Positions 1,348 to 18,573 of a stretch of 32,000 nt of DNA are shown one piece after another. The DNA is from Nitrososphaera viennensis EN76. Lineage in GTDB: Archaea; Thermoproteota; Nitrososphaeria; Nitrososphaerales; Nitrososphaeraceae. The translations under genes were made by a program, and so were the position numbers. The stretch covers positions 270,001 to 302,000 of the forward strand of contig NZ_CP007536.1 in NCBI RefSeq assembly GCF_000698785.1. Direction: 5' to 3'. A model generated the notes under the pieces. That model had not been told where the DNA came from. It searched no databases and was given only the letters and a program-made list of their open reading frames with translations. Numbering within the stretch: position 1 is the stretch's first letter; each line of letters begins with the position of its first letter.

Positions 1348-2409
1348 CTATAAATCATTCGACTTTTTTTGGGTCACGTAATAGTAGTTCAGCATGTCGC
1401 CCTCCACCTGCTTGACGTCTACGCTTCCAAAGCCTGCCTCTGCCAGCTTTTCCTTTGCCTTCTGCTCGCCCCACACGGTGCCAAGCCCTTCGCCACCGTA
1501 TGCAAGCGACACGGTCATGCAGTGCATGGTGGAAATCGTGTATAGCGTCGGCGCAAGCGTGTTCTGCATATTTTCATGCAGGCGGCTTGAAGCGGCAATG
1601 TCCTGCATCAAAAACGTGCCTCCCTTACGCAGCGCCCTGTAGATGCACTTGAGCACCTTGGTGGGCCTTGCCTGGTCATGTATCGTGTCAAACGCAGTGA
1701 TGAGGTCGAACTTTTCCCGGTCGTCTATCTTGGCAGCATCGACTATTTTGAACCGGGCGTTTTTGAGCTTCATCTTTTTTGCTTCTGCCCTTGCCGCACC
1801 GATGCCTTCCCTTGAAATGTCATAGCCCCAGAACCTGCTCTTTGGAAAGGTCCTTGCCATCAAGTTGATGGCATGTCCAGTGCCACAGCCGACGTCAAGC
1901 ACATCTATACCGGATTTGAGCCGGTCTGTCTGCCCTGCAAGCGGGAGTATGTCGCTTACCAGCCTTGCGTCAAACACGCGTGCAGTCTCTTCTGCCTGGA
2001 TTTCCTGGAACTTTGGAAACGCCGAATAGGGGACACCTCCTCCCTTTTTGAAGCACTTTACAATGTCGTCCTCGACGTTTCCCATGAGCGCAACATATTG
2101 TGTAAACATGGCAAGGTTGTCGATGCCTGCGGCACGCGTAAGACACGATGCGTGTGTAGCCGGCAGGCTGTACTTGCCCGCCGAAGGGTCATAGTCGATT
2201 ATCCTGCCTGTGACCATCGCGCCAAGCCACTCCCTGACGTACCGTTCGTTCAGCTTGGCAGCCTTGGCGATCTCGGCGCTCGTGGAAGGCGCAAGGCGCG
2301 CCATCGTGTCAAAGAGCCCTGCCTTGTGGCCCACGCTTGTCATGAGGCACAGCATGCCGTCGTTCAGGATCTGCAGGAACCTGCCGCTAAAATCATCATC
2401 CTTGCTCAT
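1348..2409 (-). CDS. Class I SAM-dependent methyltransferase with an N-terminal winged-helix-like dimerisation/substrate domain
   Basis: Motif I is VLDVGCGTGHAINLMA. Downstream acidic and post-I motifs are present (GYDIS, FDLITAFDTIHD, GGTFLMQD). It starts at ATG. The substrate cannot be assigned from sequence. Confidence 0.75.
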   Translation of the reverse strand: MSKDDDFSGRFLQILNDGMLCLMTSVGHKAGLFDTMARLAPSTSAEIAKAAKLNERYVREWLGAMVTGRIIDYDPSAGKYSLPATHASCLTRAAGIDNLAMFTQYVALMGNVEDDIVKCFKKGGGVPYSAFPKFQEIQAEETARVFDARLVSDILPLAGQTDRLKSGIDVLDVGCGTGHAINLMARTFPKSRFWGYDISREGIGAARAEAKKMKLKNARFKIVDAAKIDDREKFDLITAFDTIHDQARPTKVLKCIYRALRKGGTFLMQDIAASSRLHENMQNTLAPTLYTISTMHCMTVSLAYGGEGLGTVWGEQKAKEKLAEAGFGSVDVKQVEGDMLNYYYVTQKKSNDL

Positions 2410-2496
2410 ACGTATTCTTCATACCTGCAAAAAGGAGTTAAACTTAGCTCTACGCAAATAAGCAAGTGGTGTCTCTTTTTGCATGTATACACACAC

Positions 2497-3681
2497 ATGT
2501 CCTCGCCGGCAGAGATAAAGCGCAGGCTGGAGCAGAACTGGATCCAGTTCCTGACTGCCAACTCCGCCCGGCTTTCTATGGACACGCTTGACGGCTCCAG
2601 CCCGCCGTCTGTGTTTGTGGGAAGGTACGGCTACCCGAAGGTGCGGATCGGGCCGATGATACCGCCCGTGCACGGCGATACTACTGTCTACGACAGGACC
2701 GAGATGTGGGTGGGCAAGACGCTTGAAGAGATCGCCAACCTGCGCCTGTCGCTTGTGCGCGGGGTGATGAGCGTAAACGTTGGCGACACGTCCGGCCGCT
2801 ACATCGAAAACCTCCAAGAGCTTGCCATGTCCGAAAGGCCCGCGGAAAGCGAGGCCATGTTTGAGAAAAAGCCGCTTGCCGACACCGAGCTTGACCGCGA
2901 ACTCAGACTGAACACGGAAGCGGCGCCCTTTGGCCCCGCCGCACCAATAAAGACGTTCAAGGCGTCGTCGCTTTCGGCCGACCAGAAAATCGAGTCAGCG
3001 TTCTACGACGGCGACCTGCGCGCAAAAGACGCGGTGATGGAGCTTTACAAAAAGGGGATAGAGACAAGCAGGATCCACAGGGTCCTGAGCGTTGGGATGC
3101 TCGGGCTGAAAAAGAACCGCAAGCTGGTGCCCACAAGGTGGAGCATCACCGCGACCGACGACATCATCTCTGCAAACGTTGTCAGGCAGAACGAGGCAAA
3201 CGAAAGCATCGACCTCTTTGAAGTGAGGCAGTACTCGCACCTTGGCAACTATTACTCTGTCATACTGATACCCGACAGCATATGGAGCTTTGAGATGATC
3301 GAGTCGTGGTACGCCGGCGACGGCAAGATGGCGACCGGCGCCGACTATGAGGACGCAAGGGGCCTCGACCACTATCCATCGATAGCCGGCGCGTATTTCG
3401 CGGCGCGGCTTGCAGTCGCCGAGCATCTGGCAAAGAGGCATAGAAAGGCGGCCGCGCTCGTGCTGCGCGAGATCCACCCCGAGTACGTGATGCCCGTGGG
3501 CGTGTGGCAGATACGGGAGGGCGTGCGGGAGGCGCTCAAAAAGCCTGCAAAAGCGTTTGAGGGCCTTGACGGCGCGCTGGCGTTTGCATGCTCGACAATG
3601 TCGCAGTCAAGGACAGAGATCCTGCGCCACAGCCAGCTGTACCGTAATTTCAGGTCGCAGACGAGGATTACCGATTTTTAA
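2497..3681 (+). CDS. nreA: NreA-family archaeal DNA repair protein (Nre_N/Nre_C, DUF650/651 type) with a C-terminal PIP-like box
   Basis: SPPSVFVGRYGYPKVRIGPMIPP and later blocks (LVPTRWSITATDD, YPSIAGAYFAARLAV, PVGVWQIREG) fit my memory of the Nre family. The track ORF 1873-3681 is artificially extended antisense through the methyltransferase. The first sensible ATG after the divergent gene is at 2497. The C-terminus is SQTRITDF. Confidence 0.75.
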   Translation: MSSPAEIKRRLEQNWIQFLTANSARLSMDTLDGSSPPSVFVGRYGYPKVRIGPMIPPVHGDTTVYDRTEMWVGKTLEEIANLRLSLVRGVMSVNVGDTSGRYIENLQELAMSERPAESEAMFEKKPLADTELDRELRLNTEAAPFGPAAPIKTFKASSLSADQKIESAFYDGDLRAKDAVMELYKKGIETSRIHRVLSVGMLGLKKNRKLVPTRWSITATDDIISANVVRQNEANESIDLFEVRQYSHLGNYYSVILIPDSIWSFEMIESWYAGDGKMATGADYEDARGLDHYPSIAGAYFAARLAVAEHLAKRHRKAAALVLREIHPEYVMPVGVWQIREGVREALKKPAKAFEGLDGALAFACSTMSQSRTEILRHSQLYRNFRSQTRITDF

Positions 3682-4031: not shown

Positions 4032-4083
4032 TGTTGTACTTACACAGATGGGTAACACTTTCAGTTACAGACATAGGTAACAC
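4032..4083. repeat. Left terminal inverted repeat of the IS
   Basis: The left end reads TGTTGTACTTACACAGATGGGTAACACTTTCAGTTACAGACATAGGTAACAC. The reverse complement of 5008-5059 reads TGTTGTACTTACACACATAGGTAACAGATTCGATTACCGACATGGGTAACAC. The first 15 nt are identical, and GGTAACA(C/G) motifs recur within the repeat. Confidence 0.85.
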
Positions 4084-4994
4084 TTTTTCAGCCGATTCTT
4101 GTTCCTTGTAGGCGTATTTAACAACTGCAGCCACCTTTCCTGCGGAGTCAGTCCTCCTATGCCGCCGTGTTCCCTGTCCATGTTATACGCATTGACAAAC
4201 ATGGTGTACCTTACCTTCCCGTCTTCTATGTCAAGGATTTCCTCCATTGCCAGGAACTCGTTCTTTACAATCTTGTTATAGGCCTCAACCTTGCCCTGCA
4301 GCTGAGGATACGCAGCTGGTATGGGCTTGTCACTGATGTCATTTTCTTTCAGGTACTGCCTGAACGATGTGGATACAAACTGCTTCCCGTTGTCATGCAT
4401 CACTTTCTTTGGCTTGCCGTTGGTACGTATCCAATCCTGCAGCACGTCAAGAACATCCTTGCTCCTCTTTCTTTCCGTCCATTTACTTACCACCTTCCGG
4501 GTACAATCGTCTATGCAGCTTACGATGTAGTTTTTCGTGTTTGAGTTACGAAGGTAGAACGGTCCCAAGATGTCCATCTGGACCATGTCGTTTGGGTGTT
4601 TCTTCTCAAAGCGCCTGTACTTTCTTATCTTCAGCTTGCAGCTCAGCCTGTTCAGGCCATGCCTTTTCAGTACCTTGTAGACTGTCCTGCTGCTGAGGGA
4701 TACTCCAAGCCTCTTTAGCCTGAATTTTATTCTGGCAGTACCAAACCTGCTGTCCAGGCGTAGGCCGAGGATGATCTGTTCCAGCTCAGGGGTTACCTTC
4801 TCTCCTGTAATACTATGTGGCCTTCTGGACAAGTCCTTCAGTCCGTCGATGCCGCGTGCAAGGTACCTTTTCTTCCACTTGTAGTATGTCTTCCTTGATA
4901 CGCCGTACTTTCTGCAGATGTTGGTGACGCTCTCTCCAGTACGTTCGTGTTCGTGAATCAGGTTGAATCTTGTCCCTTCTATCTCTGATGACAC
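4065..4994 (-). CDS. IS481-family DDE transposase (N-terminal HTH plus rve integrase core)
   Basis: The N-terminal HTH reads ICRKYGVSRKTYYKWKKRY. Candidate catalytic residues are D in VQMDILGP, D in VMHDNGKQF and E in QGKVEAYNK, with typical rve spacing. The 309-aa ORF is uninterrupted. Confidence 0.85.
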   Translation of the reverse strand: MSSEIEGTRFNLIHEHERTGESVTNICRKYGVSRKTYYKWKKRYLARGIDGLKDLSRRPHSITGEKVTPELEQIILGLRLDSRFGTARIKFRLKRLGVSLSSRTVYKVLKRHGLNRLSCKLKIRKYRRFEKKHPNDMVQMDILGPFYLRNSNTKNYIVSCIDDCTRKVVSKWTERKRSKDVLDVLQDWIRTNGKPKKVMHDNGKQFVSTSFRQYLKENDISDKPIPAAYPQLQGKVEAYNKIVKNEFLAMEEILDIEDGKVRYTMFVNAYNMDREHGGIGGLTPQERWLQLLNTPTRNKNRLKKCYLCL

Positions 4995-11537: not shown

Positions 11538-12641
11538 CTAGCGTTCCCGCTTGCCCTCGACAAACTCGAGGAAATTGGCCTTTGCAACGGAATACGGCAT
11601 CTGGACTGGCGGGTGCTTGAAGCAGTAGGCCGAGATGCTGTCAAGCGGGCCGGATATGCCCCGGTCGATTGCTATCTTGGCGCATCTTGCCGCGTCTATC
11701 ATGACGCCTGCCGAGTTGTAGGCATCGACCACCTTCAGCTTAAGGTCAAGTTCCACGGGGATGCCTCCAAAGTACTGGCCCTTTATCGAGATGTAGCAAA
11801 TCTTGTCGTTTTCAAGGAAGCCTACAAAGTCGGACGGGCCGATACGCATCGGGACCTCGTACGGGGCCATAGCTGCCACCGCGGATGTCTTGCTTATCCT
11901 CTTGTCTTCGAGGCGCTCCTCGTCAAGCATGTTGTAAAAGTCCATGTCGCCTCCGATGTTCAGCTGGTAGGTCTCATTCACCTTGACGCCCCTGTCGACA
12001 AACAATTTTACCAACGTCTTGTGGACGACTGTCGCGCCGAGCTGGCTCATGACGTCGTCGCCGGCGCACGCAAGGCCGCGTCCTGCAAAGGCATCCTGCC
12101 ACTTGGGCGTAGACGCGATGAATACCGGTATAGCGTTTACAAATGCGCATCCTGCATCAAGACATGCCTCTGCGTAGTATTGCGTACCACGCCTGCTTCC
12201 CACCGGCAGGTAATTGAGCAGCATCTCTGCGCCCGTGTCCTTTAGCACCTGCGCCACGTTTGCAGCCGGGCCGTCTGCAACCTTGATCTTTTGCGCAAGG
12301 TGCCTGCCGATGCCGTCGTGGACCTCTCCCTTTTGCACCTTGACGTCTGTCTTGTCCATCTCTTTTATGATGCGGATAGTGTTGTTCGGCTTGGTAAATA
12401 TTGCCTCGGAAAGGTCCTTTCCAACCTTGTTTGCGTTGACGTCAAAGGCTGCGACAAACTCGATGTCTGACGGCTCCAGCCCTCCAAGGTTGTAGGCTGT
12501 CAAGCCTATCCAGTCGCTTTCCTGTTTTCTGGCGTCTGGGTTTTCGCGGTAGTACCGGGTGCCTTGGACTAGAGCAGAAGCGCAATTGCCGATCCCGGCA
12601 ATGGCGACCTTGACCTTTCTACGCATCTCGTCTATCTGCAT
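11538..12641 (-). CDS. ino1: myo-Inositol-1-phosphate synthase (inositol-3-phosphate synthase, bacterial/archaeal Ino1 type)
   Basis: The N-terminal Rossmann motif VKVAIAGIGNCASALVQGTRYY closely resembles the actinobacterial/archaeal Ino1 motif (VAIVGVGNCASSLVQG, from memory). Size is 367 aa. It starts at ATG. Confidence 0.85.
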   Translation of the reverse strand: MQIDEMRRKVKVAIAGIGNCASALVQGTRYYRENPDARKQESDWIGLTAYNLGGLEPSDIEFVAAFDVNANKVGKDLSEAIFTKPNNTIRIIKEMDKTDVKVQKGEVHDGIGRHLAQKIKVADGPAANVAQVLKDTGAEMLLNYLPVGSRRGTQYYAEACLDAGCAFVNAIPVFIASTPKWQDAFAGRGLACAGDDVMSQLGATVVHKTLVKLFVDRGVKVNETYQLNIGGDMDFYNMLDEERLEDKRISKTSAVAAMAPYEVPMRIGPSDFVGFLENDKICYISIKGQYFGGIPVELDLKLKVVDAYNSAGVMIDAARCAKIAIDRGISGPLDSISAYCFKHPPVQMPYSVAKANFLEFVEGKRER

Positions 12642-12662: not shown

Positions 12663-13364
12663 TCAAGTTGTTCTCGGGACAGAGCAAATCGTCTTTGTAT
12701 AAGCTATTTCAAACCCTGCGCTTTTGTACAGGCCAAGCAGGTTTTCGCTTCCAAGCGTCTGTAGGAACAAAAGCGAGCCGCGCTTTTCCGCAAGCGCCTT
12801 GGCAAAATTCAGAATCGACCTGGCGACGCCCTTGTTCCTATACGCCGGGATCGTGCCAAGGCAGTAGGTGCCGGTCATGCTGTTGTCGCTTTTTGTGAAA
12901 AGCGCCGCACATCCTGCCGGCAGATTGTCTTCATTGTATGCCAGCAAGAGATCCAATCTTTTTGCACTGGCTGCCATGATGCGTGCAACTTCGTCCTTCC
13001 ATCTTGGAACTGAAAACGACCTGCAAAAGACATCGACCCACGTCGCGACTTCTTCCGATGACTTGCATACTACTATTCTGATCCTGCCGTCGTTATGCCC
13101 TGCCTTTTTCGTCGATCTCAATACGTACATGGTGTCTGCCACGCGCAGGCCCTGCGGCGGCGACTTGAAAAAATAAAGGTGGCAATCGATGCCTGCGTCC
13201 CAGAACACCTTTGCCACCTGCTCGTACGGGACATCGCAATTTTCGACTGTTGCCCTGCTGAAGAAATAGTCGCCTTCAAGCCTCGGGTTGACAAGCGCAG
13301 TGGCGCATCTGATCTCTATTTTCTTTGTCCATAGCGAGCAGAACGCCCACTCGTTTTCCTCCAT
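12663..13364 (-). CDS. GNAT-family N-acetyltransferase with an additional N-terminal domain of about 90 aa
   Basis: The acetyl-CoA binding motif A is IPAYRNKGVARSILNFA in the C-terminal half. Track ORF start 13445 would overlap the upstream ligase gene by 65 nt. The ATG at 13364 (MEENEWAF) removes that overlap and leaves a 16-nt gap. Confidence 0.7.
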   Translation of the reverse strand: MEENEWAFCSLWTKKIEIRCATALVNPRLEGDYFFSRATVENCDVPYEQVAKVFWDAGIDCHLYFFKSPPQGLRVADTMYVLRSTKKAGHNDGRIRIVVCKSSEEVATWVDVFCRSFSVPRWKDEVARIMAASAKRLDLLLAYNEDNLPAGCAALFTKSDNSMTGTYCLGTIPAYRNKGVARSILNFAKALAEKRGSLLFLQTLGSENLLGLYKSAGFEIAYTKTICSVPRTT

Positions 13365-13380
13365 CGCCCTGTCGTAATCA

Positions 13381-14508
13381 TCAGTACCTGAGGCCAAGTA
13401 TTCCTGCCATCTCTCTAGTACCTGCGCCTGCGCGCGCCGCTTCAAGCATCACCTTTATCGCGCCTTGCGTGTCAAAATCGTCGTCCAACTTTTGCATGAA
13501 TTTCTTCATGTACGCTACCTTGTCTTTTTTGTCGGCTGCGCCTGAAATCGCATTGTCAAGCTCTGCGCATTTGGCCAGCTCGTTTTCTGCAAAGTCGAGC
13601 CGCTTTCCGTAATGCGTGGAATAGAGGTAAAGTCGCAACGCGTTTGCGCTGTGGTTCTGCAATAGCTCTCTGATGGCGACCGTGTTGCCAAGCGACTTGC
13701 CCATCTTCTTTCCCTTGACGTACACGAGGCCGACGTGCGTCCACAACTTTACCGGCTCCTTTTCAGACGTGAGCGCGCTCAGCTGCGCAAGGTGCGACTC
13801 GTGGTGCGGGTATACGAGCTCGTCAGCGCCGCCGTGCATGTCGTACCTGCCACCAAAGTGGGCCATGGCAACCGACGTGTCCTGCATGTGCCACCAAGGT
13901 ATGCCGTTTCCAAGCACGCTGTCAGAAAAGCTGATCCCAAAATCCTCGCCTGTGCTCCAGAGCAGAACGTCAAACGGCGATCTCTTGCCAGGCGCAATGT
14001 CCAGCCTGCAGTCTGCAAGCTCTTTTTCAGTCATCTTTGACAGCCTGCCAAAGCCTGCGCTTTTGGCGTCAAGGTAGACGTTTCCGCTTGCGCTGTACGC
14101 CTTGCCCTCGTCAAGCAGGCGCCTTGCAAGCACCCGCGCCGTCTGCACGTGATCTGACACGCGCGCAAACGCAAAGCCGTCAATGCCAAGGACCGCCGTA
14201 TCGTGCAATAATTCGCCGATGTAGGACGTGGCAAGCTCTTCCGGCGCCGTGCCTTCTGCTTTTGCCCTTGCAAATATCTTGGGATCGATGTCGGTAATGT
14301 TCACGATGACCTTGACCTCTGTGCCCAGAAAGCGCAGGTAGCGCGTCACCATGTCGTAAAAGAGGAGCATCCTTGCGTGGCCCACGTGCGAATAATCGTA
14401 CACGGTAGGCCCGCAGAGAAATATCCTGGCGGCGTTTCCTGGAGCAAAGTCTTTCTTTTTTGCCGCCAGCGTGTCATGGATCTTCAAGTGCCGGATAGCG
14501 CCTGCCAA
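13381..14508 (-). CDS. CysRS/MshC-family class I ligase lacking the C-terminal anticodon-binding domain and carrying altered zinc-site residues (not a canonical cysteinyl-tRNA synthetase)
   Basis: It has HIGH as HVGH in LCGPTVYDYSHVGHAR and KMSKS as KMGKS. It is colinear with E. coli CysRS (from memory) up to the DDDF(N/D)T helical bundle. It ends about 30 aa later, at 375 aa versus about 460. WHIEC is replaced by WHMQD, and HHENE by HHESH. The start is TTG at 14508, or TTG at 14487. Confidence 0.8.
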   Translation of the reverse strand: MAGAIRHLKIHDTLAAKKKDFAPGNAARIFLCGPTVYDYSHVGHARMLLFYDMVTRYLRFLGTEVKVIVNITDIDPKIFARAKAEGTAPEELATSYIGELLHDTAVLGIDGFAFARVSDHVQTARVLARRLLDEGKAYSASGNVYLDAKSAGFGRLSKMTEKELADCRLDIAPGKRSPFDVLLWSTGEDFGISFSDSVLGNGIPWWHMQDTSVAMAHFGGRYDMHGGADELVYPHHESHLAQLSALTSEKEPVKLWTHVGLVYVKGKKMGKSLGNTVAIRELLQNHSANALRLYLYSTHYGKRLDFAENELAKCAELDNAISGAADKKDKVAYMKKFMQKLDDDFDTQGAIKVMLEAARAGAGTREMAGILGLRY

Positions 14509-14517
14509 TGGTTTTCG

Positions 14518-15651
14518 TCAGACGGCCTCGGCAAGTTCGGGGCGCTCTTGGCTTATTATCTTGCCAAGGCCGCGCATGTAGTTTCGCGCAAACGTCGACA
14601 CCGGCTGCGATGAATACCAGATGCAGCCGAGCACTTCGCAGTCGTGGCACGTCCTTGCAATGTCCCACTGCGGCGCGCTCCATATCTCGTCTACCGAGTG
14701 CTCAAGGAGGCTGTACGTGTTTTCCGGGCCGTTGAACTTCCAGCACGGGACCATCACGGTGCCATCGCCGTTTACAAATATGCTCTTCCACACTCCGCAC
14801 TCGTCGAAAATCCCGCGGCCGTGCTCCAGTATCTGCCGGAAATACTCTGGCGGGATCATCACCTGCGGGCCTCCTCCTTTTTCTTTTTGCTTGCCCATGT
14901 AGTCAAGTATGCTTTCGCACACCTTGTTCATTGTCTGCCTGTCGGGAAGAAGCGAATAGTCGACATCCGACCTGTCCTCTACAAACGTGAACGAGACTGC
15001 GCTTGCGCCAAGCTCTCTTGCCCTGTCAAAATATGTCTGGTCAATGAACTCTTGCGTGTTGTATTTCGTAATGACGCTGTTGAAGTAATGCGAGACCTTA
15101 TGCTCTGTCAAGAGGTGCAGGTTGTCCATCACCCTGCGGTACATGTGCGGGTTGACCCCGCGCACCTTGCAGTACGATTCCTCATAGGTCGAGTCGATGC
15201 TACATGTGACAAACTGGATGTGCTTTCTCAGCTCGTCAAGGTCGATTGTGTGCAAAAGCGAGCAGTTGGAGATGAGCGTTACCGGCATTTTCAGGCCGTG
15301 CAGGTATTTCACGAGCTCCATAAAGTCCGGCCTGCTCGTGGGCTCGCCTCCTTCCACTATGGCCCAGACGCAGTATTTCGACACCTTGTCAAACACTGCC
15401 TTCCATTGCTCGGTTGTCAGGTCCTTGCGCCTTGCAAGCGCCATCTGGCCTTCCTTGTCCGCGTCTCCAAAGGGGCACATGGGGCAGTAAAAGTTGCAGT
15501 AATGGGTCATGCTGAACACTGCGATCAGCGGGCGTCTCCTGCCGACGGCCCTGTTTGCGGACCACTTGCCGAGCAGCTTCAGCGTCCTTATGGTGTCTAC
15601 TCCTCCCATTACGATTTTTGTAAAATGTCCGGAGTATTTCTGCCTTGTCAT
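14518..15651 (-). CDS. Radical SAM enzyme with a C-terminal SPASM/twitch-like Cys-rich extension
   Basis: The CxxxCxxC motif is HYCNFYCPMC and a GGEP motif is present (VEGGEPTS). C-terminal cysteines are ECGVWKSIFVNGDGTVMVPC and CHDCEVLGC. The ATG is at 15651; the track start at 15660 is a TTG three codons upstream. The stop lies 9 nt from the start of the ligase gene. Confidence 0.8.
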   Translation of the reverse strand: MTRQKYSGHFTKIVMGGVDTIRTLKLLGKWSANRAVGRRRPLIAVFSMTHYCNFYCPMCPFGDADKEGQMALARRKDLTTEQWKAVFDKVSKYCVWAIVEGGEPTSRPDFMELVKYLHGLKMPVTLISNCSLLHTIDLDELRKHIQFVTCSIDSTYEESYCKVRGVNPHMYRRVMDNLHLLTEHKVSHYFNSVITKYNTQEFIDQTYFDRARELGASAVSFTFVEDRSDVDYSLLPDRQTMNKVCESILDYMGKQKEKGGGPQVMIPPEYFRQILEHGRGIFDECGVWKSIFVNGDGTVMVPCWKFNGPENTYSLLEHSVDEIWSAPQWDIARTCHDCEVLGCIWYSSQPVSTFARNYMRGLGKIISQERPELAEAV

Positions 15652-15695
15652 CGTGCGCAAAGGCTAACAGAGGGGGCGTGCGCTACGCATGTGGC

Positions 15696-16992: not shown

Positions 16993-18573
16993 TTATACCA
17001 CGTTTACCGTGACTGCCTTGAGCACGGACACTTCGTCGTTTTCCGCGCCAAGCATCAGCGTATACTGCCCTGCTGCAATGTTGCCGGGCGTGAACACGAA
17101 CGACACTTGTTTTGAGTCGCCTGCTGGGATGGAAACATCCTGCTCGCTGAAAATGCCAGTCGAGTTGCCAAGATCGCCGTTGTACGTGAACGTGCCAGAG
17201 GCAACCATTCTGCCGCTAAAGGCGCCCTGGGCGTTGATGTCGACTTTGATTTCCATGCTGTCGCCCCTTCTTACGTTCACGTCATCCGGTGCAGATACCG
17301 TGAACGGGGCCTGTGCGTCTGTGTTGACCCTGCCTATCTTGTTCTCGCTCCATTCTGTGAACCACACTTGGCCCTGCGGGCCTACGGACATCTGGAGCGC
17401 GTTTGCAAGCCCGCATGTGTTGGCATTGTCGGGGCAGTTGGCCCACAACTCGTTTTGGCTTGGGACCCAGTACTCTGTGAGCGTCCTTGTGTCCCTGTCA
17501 AACACGCTGATCTTGTTGCCTTCGTGCTGGTTGAACCATATCCTGCCGTCAGGCGCAGTCGCTATCCAGTATGGAAGTGTGTATGCGCTTGCAGGCGTCG
17601 TGGTGCCGCCGTATATCCTTGGCGACGCAACAGAGGTGGTGTATTCCGTCACCTTGCCATCGCTTGGGTTTAGCGTAAAGAATATGCTCGTGCCATGGTC
17701 CGTGCCCCACAGGTTGCCGTCCCTGTCGACTGTCAGGCCTACTGGCGATGTGAGCTCTTGCGGCAGGTCGTACACGGATGTCTGGTTCCTTTCAACATCA
17801 TATCTATAGATAGCACCTTTTTGCTGGAACGCAAGGACCGATGTCCACACGACGTTGCGCTCCCTGTCAACCGTCACGGAGCCGGAGCTGACGCGGAAAT
17901 TGTCAATGCCTGCAAAGCCGTCAAGCGGGAGCCTGATCTCTGTAAAGCCTTCTGCCGTGCCGGGCTTCATCTGGGAAAGGTCGCCAAAAAAGAGTGACTT
18001 TGACCTTACGCCCACGAGATAGATGTTGCCGTCAGAGTCAAAGTCAAACGAAATCGGGTCCGTCGCCGGCGTCCTGAACATGTCAAATGTGCTCGCAGCA
18101 GTGTTAAAGCGCCACAAAAGCTCGTTGTTGTCTGTGAACCATACGTTGCCCTGCGAGTCGGTCTTGGTCGCCCACGACATGTTAAAGTCGGTCGGCTTGT
18201 CACGCGCAGGCCACTGGGGTATCTGGTACTGTGCAAATTTGTTGTCAGCAATGCTGTAGCTGCCGAGTATGCCCTGCTTTGTAGAGACGTACCACACGCG
18301 GCCGTCGCCGTCGACAGAGACTGAAAGCGGCATCTGGCACTCGGACGGCAGGACTGCTTCAGCTATGTACGTATTGGAATTGGCCTTGGAGTCAGGGCCG
18401 CAGAATTGCGCCTTGAATCTTGCTATCGAGTCTTGCTGCGACGGTTGAGGCCCGGGCGCGGGCTCTGTCCCGCCTGCAAGAAAGGTTGCTGAAACGCCTG
18501 CAACAGCCACTATGCCGATGATGGCGTAGATTATGATCTTCCTATTTGAAGAAGAAGATCTGCCGCCTGACAA
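16993..18573 (-). CDS. Membrane-anchored or secreted beta-propeller repeat protein (Vgb-lyase/NHL-like blades) with a C-terminal Ig-like domain
   Basis: The N-terminal hydrophobic anchor is IIIYAIIGIVAVAGVSATFLAGG. Blade motifs recur: DGRVWYVSTKQG, QGNVWFTDNNE, DGNIYLVG, RNVVWTS, DGNLWGTDHG, DGRIWFNQHEGNKISVFD and QGQVWFTEWSENKIGRV. The beta-rich C-terminal domain of about 100 aa ends in VTVNVV. Confidence 0.65.
   Translation of the reverse strand: MSGGRSSSSNRKIIIYAIIGIVAVAGVSATFLAGGTEPAPGPQPSQQDSIARFKAQFCGPDSKANSNTYIAEAVLPSECQMPLSVSVDGDGRVWYVSTKQGILGSYSIADNKFAQYQIPQWPARDKPTDFNMSWATKTDSQGNVWFTDNNELLWRFNTAASTFDMFRTPATDPISFDFDSDGNIYLVGVRSKSLFFGDLSQMKPGTAEGFTEIRLPLDGFAGIDNFRVSSGSVTVDRERNVVWTSVLAFQQKGAIYRYDVERNQTSVYDLPQELTSPVGLTVDRDGNLWGTDHGTSIFFTLNPSDGKVTEYTTSVASPRIYGGTTTPASAYTLPYWIATAPDGRIWFNQHEGNKISVFDRDTRTLTEYWVPSQNELWANCPDNANTCGLANALQMSVGPQGQVWFTEWSENKIGRVNTDAQAPFTVSAPDDVNVRRGDSMEIKVDINAQGAFSGRMVASGTFTYNGDLGNSTGIFSEQDVSIPAGDSKQVSFVFTPGNIAAGQYTLMLGAENDEVSVLKAVTVNVV

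Follow-up and report, generated by a model that had tools for sequence, protein, structure and literature searches.

A shortened paralogue of cysteinyl-tRNA synthetase linked to a tandem-GNAT acetyltransferase in Nitrososphaera viennensis and related ammonia-oxidising archaea: a candidate ligase with a new acceptor

Reviews of synthetase paralogues name only MshC and CysRS* as derivatives of cysteinyl-tRNA synthetase (CysRS) (PMC9437257, PMC2922099). MshC, the L-cysteine:GlcN-Ins ligase of mycothiol biosynthesis in Actinobacteria (PDB 3c8z, 8hfm), is a chain of about 375-415 residues without an anticodon-binding domain, and CysRS* of Desulfobacterales, which also lacks that domain, charges SelC* and is coupled to the SelC* tRNA and to SelB* (Mukai et al. 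2017, as reviewed in PMC9437257). CysRS-derived ligases without an anticodon-binding domain are thus already known, and comparison of sequences points to a further family of this kind in Thaumarchaeota that is uncharacterised and apparently not described: searches of the accessible literature for a thaumarchaeal short CysRS family, or for mycothiol or MshC in Thaumarchaeota, returned nothing relevant. Here we analyse one member of this family, the product of cysS-1 (NVIE_003280), encoded in a 32,000-nucleotide stretch of the Nitrososphaera viennensis EN76 genome (contig NZ_CP007536.1, positions 270,001 to 302,000; hereafter the window), where it is followed by the gene of a tandem-GNAT acetyltransferase, and we discuss what the pair may do.

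The reading frame of cysS-1 (Table 1) matches a deposited N. viennensis EN76 protein (P0001) with 100% identity and full coverage, and this protein carries the label 'cysteine--tRNA ligase' in both GenBank and IMG. The class-I catalytic domain with its HIGH and KMSKS motifs is present (Pfam tRNA-synt_1e, E=1.1e-71), and matches in the PDB include the CysRS structure 8qhp (E=1.3e-68) and E. coli CysRS 1li5 (E=2.2e-62). The score against the NCBIfam model TIGR00435 (cysS), 262.2 bits, lies under the equivalog cutoff of 340, and the match ends at model position 372 of 466; the score against TIGR03447 (MshC), 203.4 bits, is also under its equivalog cutoff of 485. Only positions 1-25 of the 57 positions of DALR_2 are matched, below the Pfam cutoff, the chain ends 28 residues past DDDFDT, and alignment with full-length archaeal CysRS shows that it stops directly past the (I/L)LG(I/L) linker. 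The missing part is the whole alpha/beta anticodon-binding domain, with its GIxLEDxxxGxxW signature, removed as a clean deletion after the helical bundle. A preliminary description, made from the DNA alone, had proposed this domain loss from the end of the chain soon after DDDFDT and had aligned the protein by hand to E. coli CysRS; the loss is borne out by the partial DALR_2 match and by the end of the alignment at the linker, and the register by HMMER against 1li5, which pairs GWHIEC with WWHMQD and FPHHENE with YPHHESH.

Omics supplements of N. viennensis list cysS-1 together with a separate cysS-2 (NVIE_022420; UniProt A0A060HM12), and place NVIE_003280 among SMC, ino, GNAT, radical SAM (rSAM), lysE and albA genes, as in the window (PMC7785015, PMC12542715). 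In the portion of the proteome tables covered here, the cysS-2 protein is quantified in most samples, at values similar to those of pheS (PMC7785015, PMC12542715). Because this separate gene exists and its protein is detected, cysS-1 is a paralogue; it is a shortened paralogue of archaeal CysRS and not a standard tRNA synthetase. The preliminary description had considered a standard synthetase unlikely, and in this it is supported by the existence of cysS-2, the 262 bits against a cutoff of 340, the absent anticodon-binding domain and the loss of 15 of 74 otherwise universal positions discussed below. The view that cysS-1 simply serves N. viennensis as its housekeeping CysRS and is short by nature, which has the GenBank and IMG label on its side, is largely refuted by the same facts and by the generic name that PGAP gives to its orthologues (merely 'class I tRNA ligase family protein'), and we give it hardly any credence; the housekeeping role is rejected, given cysS-2.

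The relatives of cysS-1 form a series. Proteins encoded at 80 related loci, taken from one-genome-per-species contigs, were sorted into three groups. Group A consists of full-length proteins (447-507 aa) of many archaeal orders and some bacteria of the candidate phyla radiation (CPR), all reading GWHIED...FPHHEAE with Glu238 kept. Group B is thaumarchaeal, shorter (399-437 aa) and truncated at the same point as cysS-1, with WHIED and HHEAE retained; its members are L039, L040, L042, L043, L050 and L081 7541-8740 (P0251/P0524). Group C (369-395 aa) belongs to ammonia oxidisers (Nitrososphaera, Nitrosopolaris, Nitrosotalea and relatives), includes cysS-1 and shows the motifs WH(M/L/I)QD and HHE(S/A), the latter followed by H, V, I, L or Q. 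Thaumarchaeota thus show a graded passage from full-length CysRS to a short form with a canonical site and then to a short form with a remodelled site. The C-termini of group-C ligases usually read G-L-R-Y (a few LQY or LVY; window 13381-13389, minus strand), and an 18-sequence alignment shows no variation at Gly372, Leu373 or the terminal Tyr375.

Aspartate at the position of E. coli Cys209 is found in 38 of 38 full-length (447-507 aa) archaeal and CPR CysRS from genomes and in 119 of the best 120 matches to a profile built on full-length thaumarchaeal CysRS. Of the 150 best representatives that an exhaustive search gave, about 107 are full-length, and 20 of these carry it too. Full-length proteins with GWHIED...FPHHEAE occur throughout L037-L080 (for example L052 2205-3602, L053 9121-10536, L065 9983-11407, L069 and L074) and in P0121-P0240, and these alignments suggest that many archaeal CysRS normally have a Cys/Asp/His/Glu zinc site. 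The two full-length Asp209 proteins that were scored pass the cysS model end to end (466 and 458 bits versus 340). Since bona fide archaeal CysRS commonly carry this Asp, the change from Cys209 to Asp was inherited from archaeal CysRS, and the idea that it is an innovation of the short family is ruled out.

Group B deserves separate mention. Its protein P0251 also passes the cysS cutoff (408 bits versus 340), and a protein in one group-B cluster bears the annotation CysRS in a Nitrosopumilus metagenome-assembled genome (MAG). The portion covered of an orthologue table for marine Nitrosopumilus lists a single cysS group. Group-B proteins may still function as synthetases, in some marine ammonia-oxidising archaea perhaps as the sole CysRS, and some of these organisms might translate with a CysRS that has no anticodon-binding domain. 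No names of cultured ammonia-oxidising archaea appear among the best 120 matches of the full-length CysRS profile search, and the full-length CysRS of L080, a soil MAG of 53% GC, was dropped as a stand-in for cysS-2 on account of its Bathyarchaeota-like context. Short (400-433 aa) CysRS-like proteins of the bacterial WHxEC type with no anticodon-binding region were also seen (P0262, P0302, P0311, P0348, P0335 and P0318); all fall below the MshC cutoff and some could be fragments. To judge from such sequences, the anticodon-binding domain may have been lost repeatedly among CysRS-like proteins.

In the HMMER alignment to 1li5, Cys28, Cys209, His234 and Glu238 of E. coli CysRS correspond to Cys32, Asp210, His235 and His239 of cysS-1, so that three of the canonical zinc residues (Cys28, Cys/Asp209, His234 and Glu238) are kept and Glu238 is lost. 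Across 18 diverse members of the family, 81 alignment columns are invariant, including HIGH and most of KMSKS; Cys32, Gly33, His41, Gly43, His44, Thr72, Asp210, His235, Lys268, Met269 and Ser272 are among the invariant residues. The motif WHxQD is found in 120 of the 120 nearest homologues of cysS-1, and Trp206 is nearly invariant in the family. The position of Glu238 is occupied by His in 62% of group-C loci and otherwise by Ile, Leu, Val, Gln or Tyr, and by Ser in MshC; His239 is therefore not a conserved ligand, and its candidacy as a conserved fourth ligand is ruled out. Because HIGH, KMSKS and the Cys/Asp/His triad are conserved, binding of zinc and activation of cysteine have most likely been kept. 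Some group-C lineages carry KMSNS in place of KMSKS (L017 2446-3624, L020 1085-2263 and L019 9995-11146), and L017 and L020 also have Ala for the substrate-stacking Trp (Trp206), a pattern that suggests further relaxation or loss of activity in these lineages.

The preliminary description had taken the two exchanges at the metal site, Cys to Asp and Glu to His, as marks of a new specificity. This argument does not stand, since the Asp is inherited, His239 is variable and MshC also does without Glu238. The Asp that it reported is common in bona fide archaeal CysRS, which do not share the change from Glu238 to His; likewise, the Asp is common to the orthologues in group C, and the His only to part of them. 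Its wider suggestion of a new amino-acid or acceptor specificity fares better: a change of acceptor, and possibly of amino acid, is plausible, the support coming from a rebuilt GRPGWHIE block and from the GNAT linkage and not from the ligand swaps. More specifically, the metal site or pocket might have changed so as to select another metal, or another amino acid in place of cysteine, but this possibility seems unlikely to us. It can draw on the absence of Glu at 238, on the Gln that replaces Glu208, beside the ligand Asp210, in all of group C, and on the rebuilding of the segment from Trp194 to Glu208, which is conserved in cysteine-activating CysRS and in MshC; in addition, His235 and His239 lie at i and i+4 on a helix, so that, by analogy with His234 and Glu238, His239 could ligate metal in N. 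viennensis. However, the Cys-to-Asp exchange comes from bona fide CysRS, many members have I, L, V, Q or Y instead of His239, and the invariance of Cys32/Asp210/His235, Gly33 and Thr72, with Trp206 nearly so, is hard to explain without metal-bound thiol selection, while MshC uses cysteine in the absence of Glu238 (MshC function: PMC9437257).

The extent of the remodelling was gauged on 74 universal positions, taken to be those that full-length CysRS of the ED type (n=34) and of the EC type (n=75) alike conserve. In group C 15 of them are gone, including Asp72, Lys185, Arg202, Gly204, Glu208 and Glu238; group B has lost 4 (about 95% kept), and MshC keeps 60. The losses of group C are enriched at positions that are also changed in MshC (6/14 versus 9/60, Fisher p=0.03), and two replacements, Ile75 to Phe and Asn351 to Asp, are convergent in group C and MshC. 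The block GRPGWHIE, which CysRS and MshC both retain, has become G(I/V)PWWH(M/L)Q in group C, with a second Trp inserted ahead of the substrate-stacking one; the statement in the preliminary description that MshC keeps GWHVEC was correct, the M. smegmatis enzyme reading GRPGWHVEC. The new residues are regular ones: Gln209 (from Glu208) in 100% of group C, Asn for Lys185 in 92% and Trp205 (from Gly204) in 79%, with Pro or Gln for Asp72. Since the anticodon-binding domain is lost and the RPGWHIE segment, which lies near the acceptor and amino-acid pocket, is rebuilt, an acceptor other than anticodon-selected tRNA-Cys is most likely.

The product of the partner gene has two halves: the N-terminal one is GNAT-like but degenerate, and the C-terminal one is a GNAT in which the CoA-binding motif RxxGxA is invariant. 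Its longest open reading frame (ORF; 12663-13445, minus strand) begins at a TTG and overlaps the ligase gene by 65 nt; the true start is the ATG at 13364, because a deposited 233-aa protein of 100% identity and the homologues support it. Of 39 short-ligase loci of groups B and C, 34 have a GNAT homologue on the ligase strand, downstream of the ligase, compared with 0 of 37 loci of full-length CysRS, and the two genes usually overlap by 4 nt or lie within about 25 nt of each other, also at L081. The AlphaFold model of the protein (pLDDT 94) is a tandem GNAT, and its best Foldseek matches are likewise tandem GNATs (3frm, VipF, 4ius and 3ec4, also glucosamine N-acetyltransferase and WecD); several of these structural neighbours act on amino sugars or small amines.

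Table 1. Features of the window, with positions counted from its first nucleotide
Feature	Position	Strand	Remark
cysS-1 (NVIE_003280)	13381..14508	-	375-aa CysRS-derived ligase, TTG start
Domains of cysS-1			Rossmann catalytic domain, CP domain, stem-contact fold and helical bundle; anticodon-binding domain absent
Codon of Cys32	14413..14415	-	predicted first metal ligand (E. coli Cys28), family-invariant
HIGH motif HVGH, residues 41-44	14377..14388	-	His41, Gly43 and His44 invariant
PWWHMQD, residues 204-210	13879..13899	-	remodelled form of the universal RPGWHIE(C/D) segment
HHESH, residues 235-239	13792..13806	-	His235 invariant; His239 (Glu238 position) variable in the family
KMSKS loop KMGKS, residues 268-272	13693..13707	-	
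NVIE_003270, tandem-GNAT acetyltransferase	12663..13364	-	233 aa; starts 17 nt past the ligase stop
ino, myo-inositol-1-phosphate synthase	11538..12641	-	21 nt downstream of the GNAT gene; membership of the system uncertain
NVIE_003290, radical SAM/SPASM protein	14518..15660	-	9 nt upstream of the ligase; membership of the system uncertain
Archaeal Nre-family protein (Nre_N + Nre_C)	1873-3681	+	Pfam match from residue 231 of the longest ORF; real start probably well downstream of 1873
IS481-like transposase/integrase	4065-4994	-	rve core and helix-turn-helix; between the Nre-family gene and ProRS
526-aa beta-propeller protein	16993-18573	-	N-terminal hydrophobic segment (probable membrane anchor or signal); virginiamycin B lyase-like repeats; conserved beside Alba in Nitrososphaera loci

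We tentatively favour the reading that cysS-1 is a ligase of new function, which activates cysteine and passes it to an acceptor other than an anticodon-selected tRNA-Cys, the product being then acylated by the GNAT protein. In this scheme Cys32, Asp210 and His235 would bind a metal, most likely zinc, and the HIGH and KMSKS motifs would form cysteinyl-AMP from L-cysteine or a very close thiol analogue; the cysteinyl group would be moved by cysS-1 to its acceptor, and the adjacent tandem GNAT would N-acylate the product with an acyl-CoA. Such a sequence of reactions would repeat the logic of MshC followed by MshD, evolved a second time from an archaeal CysRS. The phylogenetic comparison that the preliminary description had called for supports the archaeal origin. 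A neighbour-joining tree built on the catalytic core unites the short proteins of groups B and C in one clade within ED-type archaeal CysRS (bootstrap 59), in which B is paraphyletic to core C (bootstrap 100), and the MshC-like P0318 and P0335 fall with EC-type bacterial CysRS (bootstrap 100). By this tree, whose deep nodes are weak, the short family arose from archaeal CysRS, separately from MshC. The structural comparison agrees in the extent of the chain: the predicted ligase structure (pLDDT 87.5, pTM 0.90) has the domain content of a complete MshC chain and superposes on the whole of it (Foldseek TMq 0.88-0.89, TMt 0.82-0.83, root-mean-square deviation 2.8-2.9 A).

Several observations weigh against this proposal. 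The same ligase model fits tRNA-bound E. coli CysRS (1u0b) as well as MshC, with a TMq of 0.88, so that the comparison of folds had to be abandoned as a means of separating the two. The net charge of the group-C core is +3.7 versus -18 in MshC, a difference confounded by proteome composition, and a slightly positive core leans weakly to nucleic-acid binding. The rebuilt block, in which Trp194, Ser196 and Pro197 are affected and Arg202 has become Ile or Val, Gly204 Trp and Glu208 Gln, detracts from the likeness to MshC: cysS-1 is not simply MshC-like, and its amino-acid pocket itself may have changed. The deep nodes that place the short family in the tree have, as said, a bootstrap of 59. On the side of the acetyltransferase, MshD (2c27) ranks only 12th among the Foldseek matches (TMq 0.67), and phmmer against the PDB gave no specific sequence match to MshD. 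A specific kinship of sequence with MshD was thus sought by phmmer and not found, and the likeness is one of architecture only. Neither an MshA-like glycosyltransferase nor an MshB-like deacetylase is present in the 32-kb window or beside the ligase elsewhere, and our literature search found no report of a low-molecular-weight or mycothiol-like thiol of ammonia-oxidising archaea. Finally, the GNAT module is shared by the little-derived group B, so the linkage may be older than any loss of tRNA charging.

Part of this evidence would suit an enzyme that still aminoacylates RNA, either as an anticodon-independent CysRS comparable to CysRS* or as a modifier of a tRNA nucleoside comparable to GluQRS/YadB, in which case the GNAT protein might acetylate an aminoacyl-RNA or act on something unrelated. 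We know of no cysteinylated tRNA nucleoside. Class-I synthetases that have been shortened without losing their action on tRNA are on record (PMC9437257), cysS-1 retains the stem-contact fold and the helical bundle, its model matches the tRNA-bound enzyme, and its core is slightly positive where that of MshC is strongly acidic. Group B, the source of group C, keeps most universal positions and scores above the cysS cutoff; it shares the GNAT module and includes the annotated CysRS of a Nitrosopumilus MAG. However, no dedicated tRNA gene stands beside the ligase in the window or within several kb in 23 related loci, whereas CysRS* is coupled to its tRNA, and the universal positions lost by group C, Arg202, Gly204, Glu208, Lys185 and Asp72 among them, overlap with those changed in the tRNA-independent MshC. 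On balance we regard an RNA acceptor, the chief rival to the favoured reading, as rather doubtful. Neither the window nor the related loci hold a SelB-like neighbour of the ligase, and the window contains no Rfam elements. At L043, about 6 kb from the group-B ligase, ARAGORN calls a 90-nt tRNA-like element with a four-base anticodon (atag; 17049-17138, minus strand), which could be an intron-containing tRNA or a false call.

Expression data bear on a further possibility, that cysS-1 is a decaying or non-catalytic remnant, a pseudo-enzyme or regulator left after cysS-2 took over the housekeeping role. Transcript values in the omics tables are about 3.5 for GNAT, 4.2-4.7 for cysS-1, 7.1 for rSAM and 8.8 for ino (PMC7785015, PMC12542715). 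The low values of cysS-1, compared with 8-9 for neighbours, would fit a remnant, as would its absence from the portion of the proteome table covered, the lineages L017 and L020 with KMSNS and Trp206 changed to Ala, and the relaxed position 238. Against this stand the retention of the family across Nitrososphaeraceae, Nitrosopolaris and Nitrosotalea with its 81 invariant columns, the tight coupling to GNAT that has been preserved, and new residues (Gln209, Asn185, Trp205) that are fixed to a degree unlike random drift. We consider a remnant quite improbable.

A more specific form of the favoured ligase reading concerns the acceptor. Ammonia-oxidising archaea would make a hitherto undescribed N-acetyl-cysteinyl conjugate that serves, like mycothiol, as a redox buffer or else as a cofactor and whose base may be an inositol-containing amine, by means of the independently recruited CysRS paralogue and the tandem GNAT, and G(I/V)PWWH(M/L)Q would be the new acceptor pocket. 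We offer this as speculation with rather low odds. The one hint of an inositol-containing amine is the neighbouring ino gene; 17 of 30 short-ligase loci have it no further than 4 kb away, and these 17 all belong to group C of ammonia oxidisers and none to group B. The gene sits in a block that runs from Alba to ligase-GNAT-ino-SMC and is syntenic across ammonia oxidisers, and because the whole block is syntenic the adjacency is weak evidence of a shared pathway. In addition, the wide spread of transcript values over the four adjacent genes argues against a single operon with ino, a further point on the negative side.

Other neighbours are less constant or of housekeeping type. The radical SAM/SPASM gene stands beside the ligase in 4 of 34 loci, all in the genus Nitrososphaera; the best NCBIfam match of NVIE_003290 is the PTO1314 family, at 82 bits where the cutoff is 306, and its transcripts reach markedly higher values than those of the ligase. 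Just upstream of the ligase, 25 of 34 short-ligase loci but 0 of 34 full-length loci have a small ORF of 80-100 aa, which carries the motif LDxDEGIRI, ends in Tyr and belongs to no Pfam family; it is mostly transcribed divergently from the ligase, on the other strand. It was located at L023 8717-8965, L043 9556-9864, L076 1384-1689 and L081 7157-7456 (all on the minus strand) and at 22 further loci, and is missing from the window and from other loci of the genus Nitrososphaera, where radical SAM/SPASM and lysE genes hold its position. The small ORF was considered as a split-off anticodon-binding domain and rejected (hhalign probability 0.4%, E=0.16). The remaining neighbours of the ligase loci are housekeeping genes (PAC2, deoxyhypusine synthase, Alba and SMC).

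Few microbes of soil and ocean are as abundant as ammonia-oxidising archaea, and in their genomes this gene pair is labelled just "cysteine--tRNA ligase" and "GNAT". If the pair does make a cysteine conjugate, it would show that a CysRS has turned into a biosynthetic ligase a second time, independently, and would be a candidate for thiol and redox chemistry in organisms exposed to copper and nitric oxide, and a widespread annotation error would be corrected. Whatever the function, the graded thaumarchaeal series offers a natural case in which the departure of a synthetase from translation can be studied.

Among known systems, the closest relatives and the evolutionary source of cysS-1 are the full-length ED-type CysRS of archaea (Methanobacterium, Methanothrix, Bathyarchaeota, Caldarchaeum and haloarchaeal MAGs). 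They share with it the Asp at the Cys209 position and the equivalents of Cys28, His234, HIGH and KMSKS; they differ in possessing the anticodon-binding domain, in keeping Glu208, Glu238, Arg202, Gly204 and Lys185, and in having neither a GNAT (0/37) nor the small ORF (0/34) as neighbour. Group B, the grade leading to C, has the truncation point and the module of small ORF, ligase and tandem GNAT in common with the group of cysS-1, but keeps Arg202, Gly204 and WHIED/HHEAE. CysRS* offers the parallel of a CysRS paralogue without the anticodon-binding domain that exists alongside a canonical CysRS; it is coupled to a tRNA and SelB*, whereas cysS-1 is partnered by a GNAT and its active-site segment is remodelled. 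GluQRS/YadB, a truncated GluRS that glutamylates queuosine in tRNA-Asp, provides a precedent for a domain-less class-I paralogue with a non-canonical acceptor, although it belongs to another synthetase family, has no GNAT partner and uses a tRNA nucleoside as acceptor. MshC differs from cysS-1 in its kinship (bacterial EC-type versus archaeal ED-type CysRS), in its triad (Cys/Cys/His versus Cys/Asp/His), in its segment (GRPGWHVEC, as in CysRS, versus GIPWWHMQD in the window) and in its mycothiol partners MshA and MshB, which have no counterparts beside cysS-1. Both proteins nevertheless derive from CysRS, are of similar length without the anticodon-binding domain, keep HIGH, KMSKS and a three-residue metal triad and have lost the equivalent of Glu238, and each is accompanied by a tandem-GNAT acetyltransferase, MshD in the mycothiol pathway and the product of the adjacent gene in N. 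viennensis.

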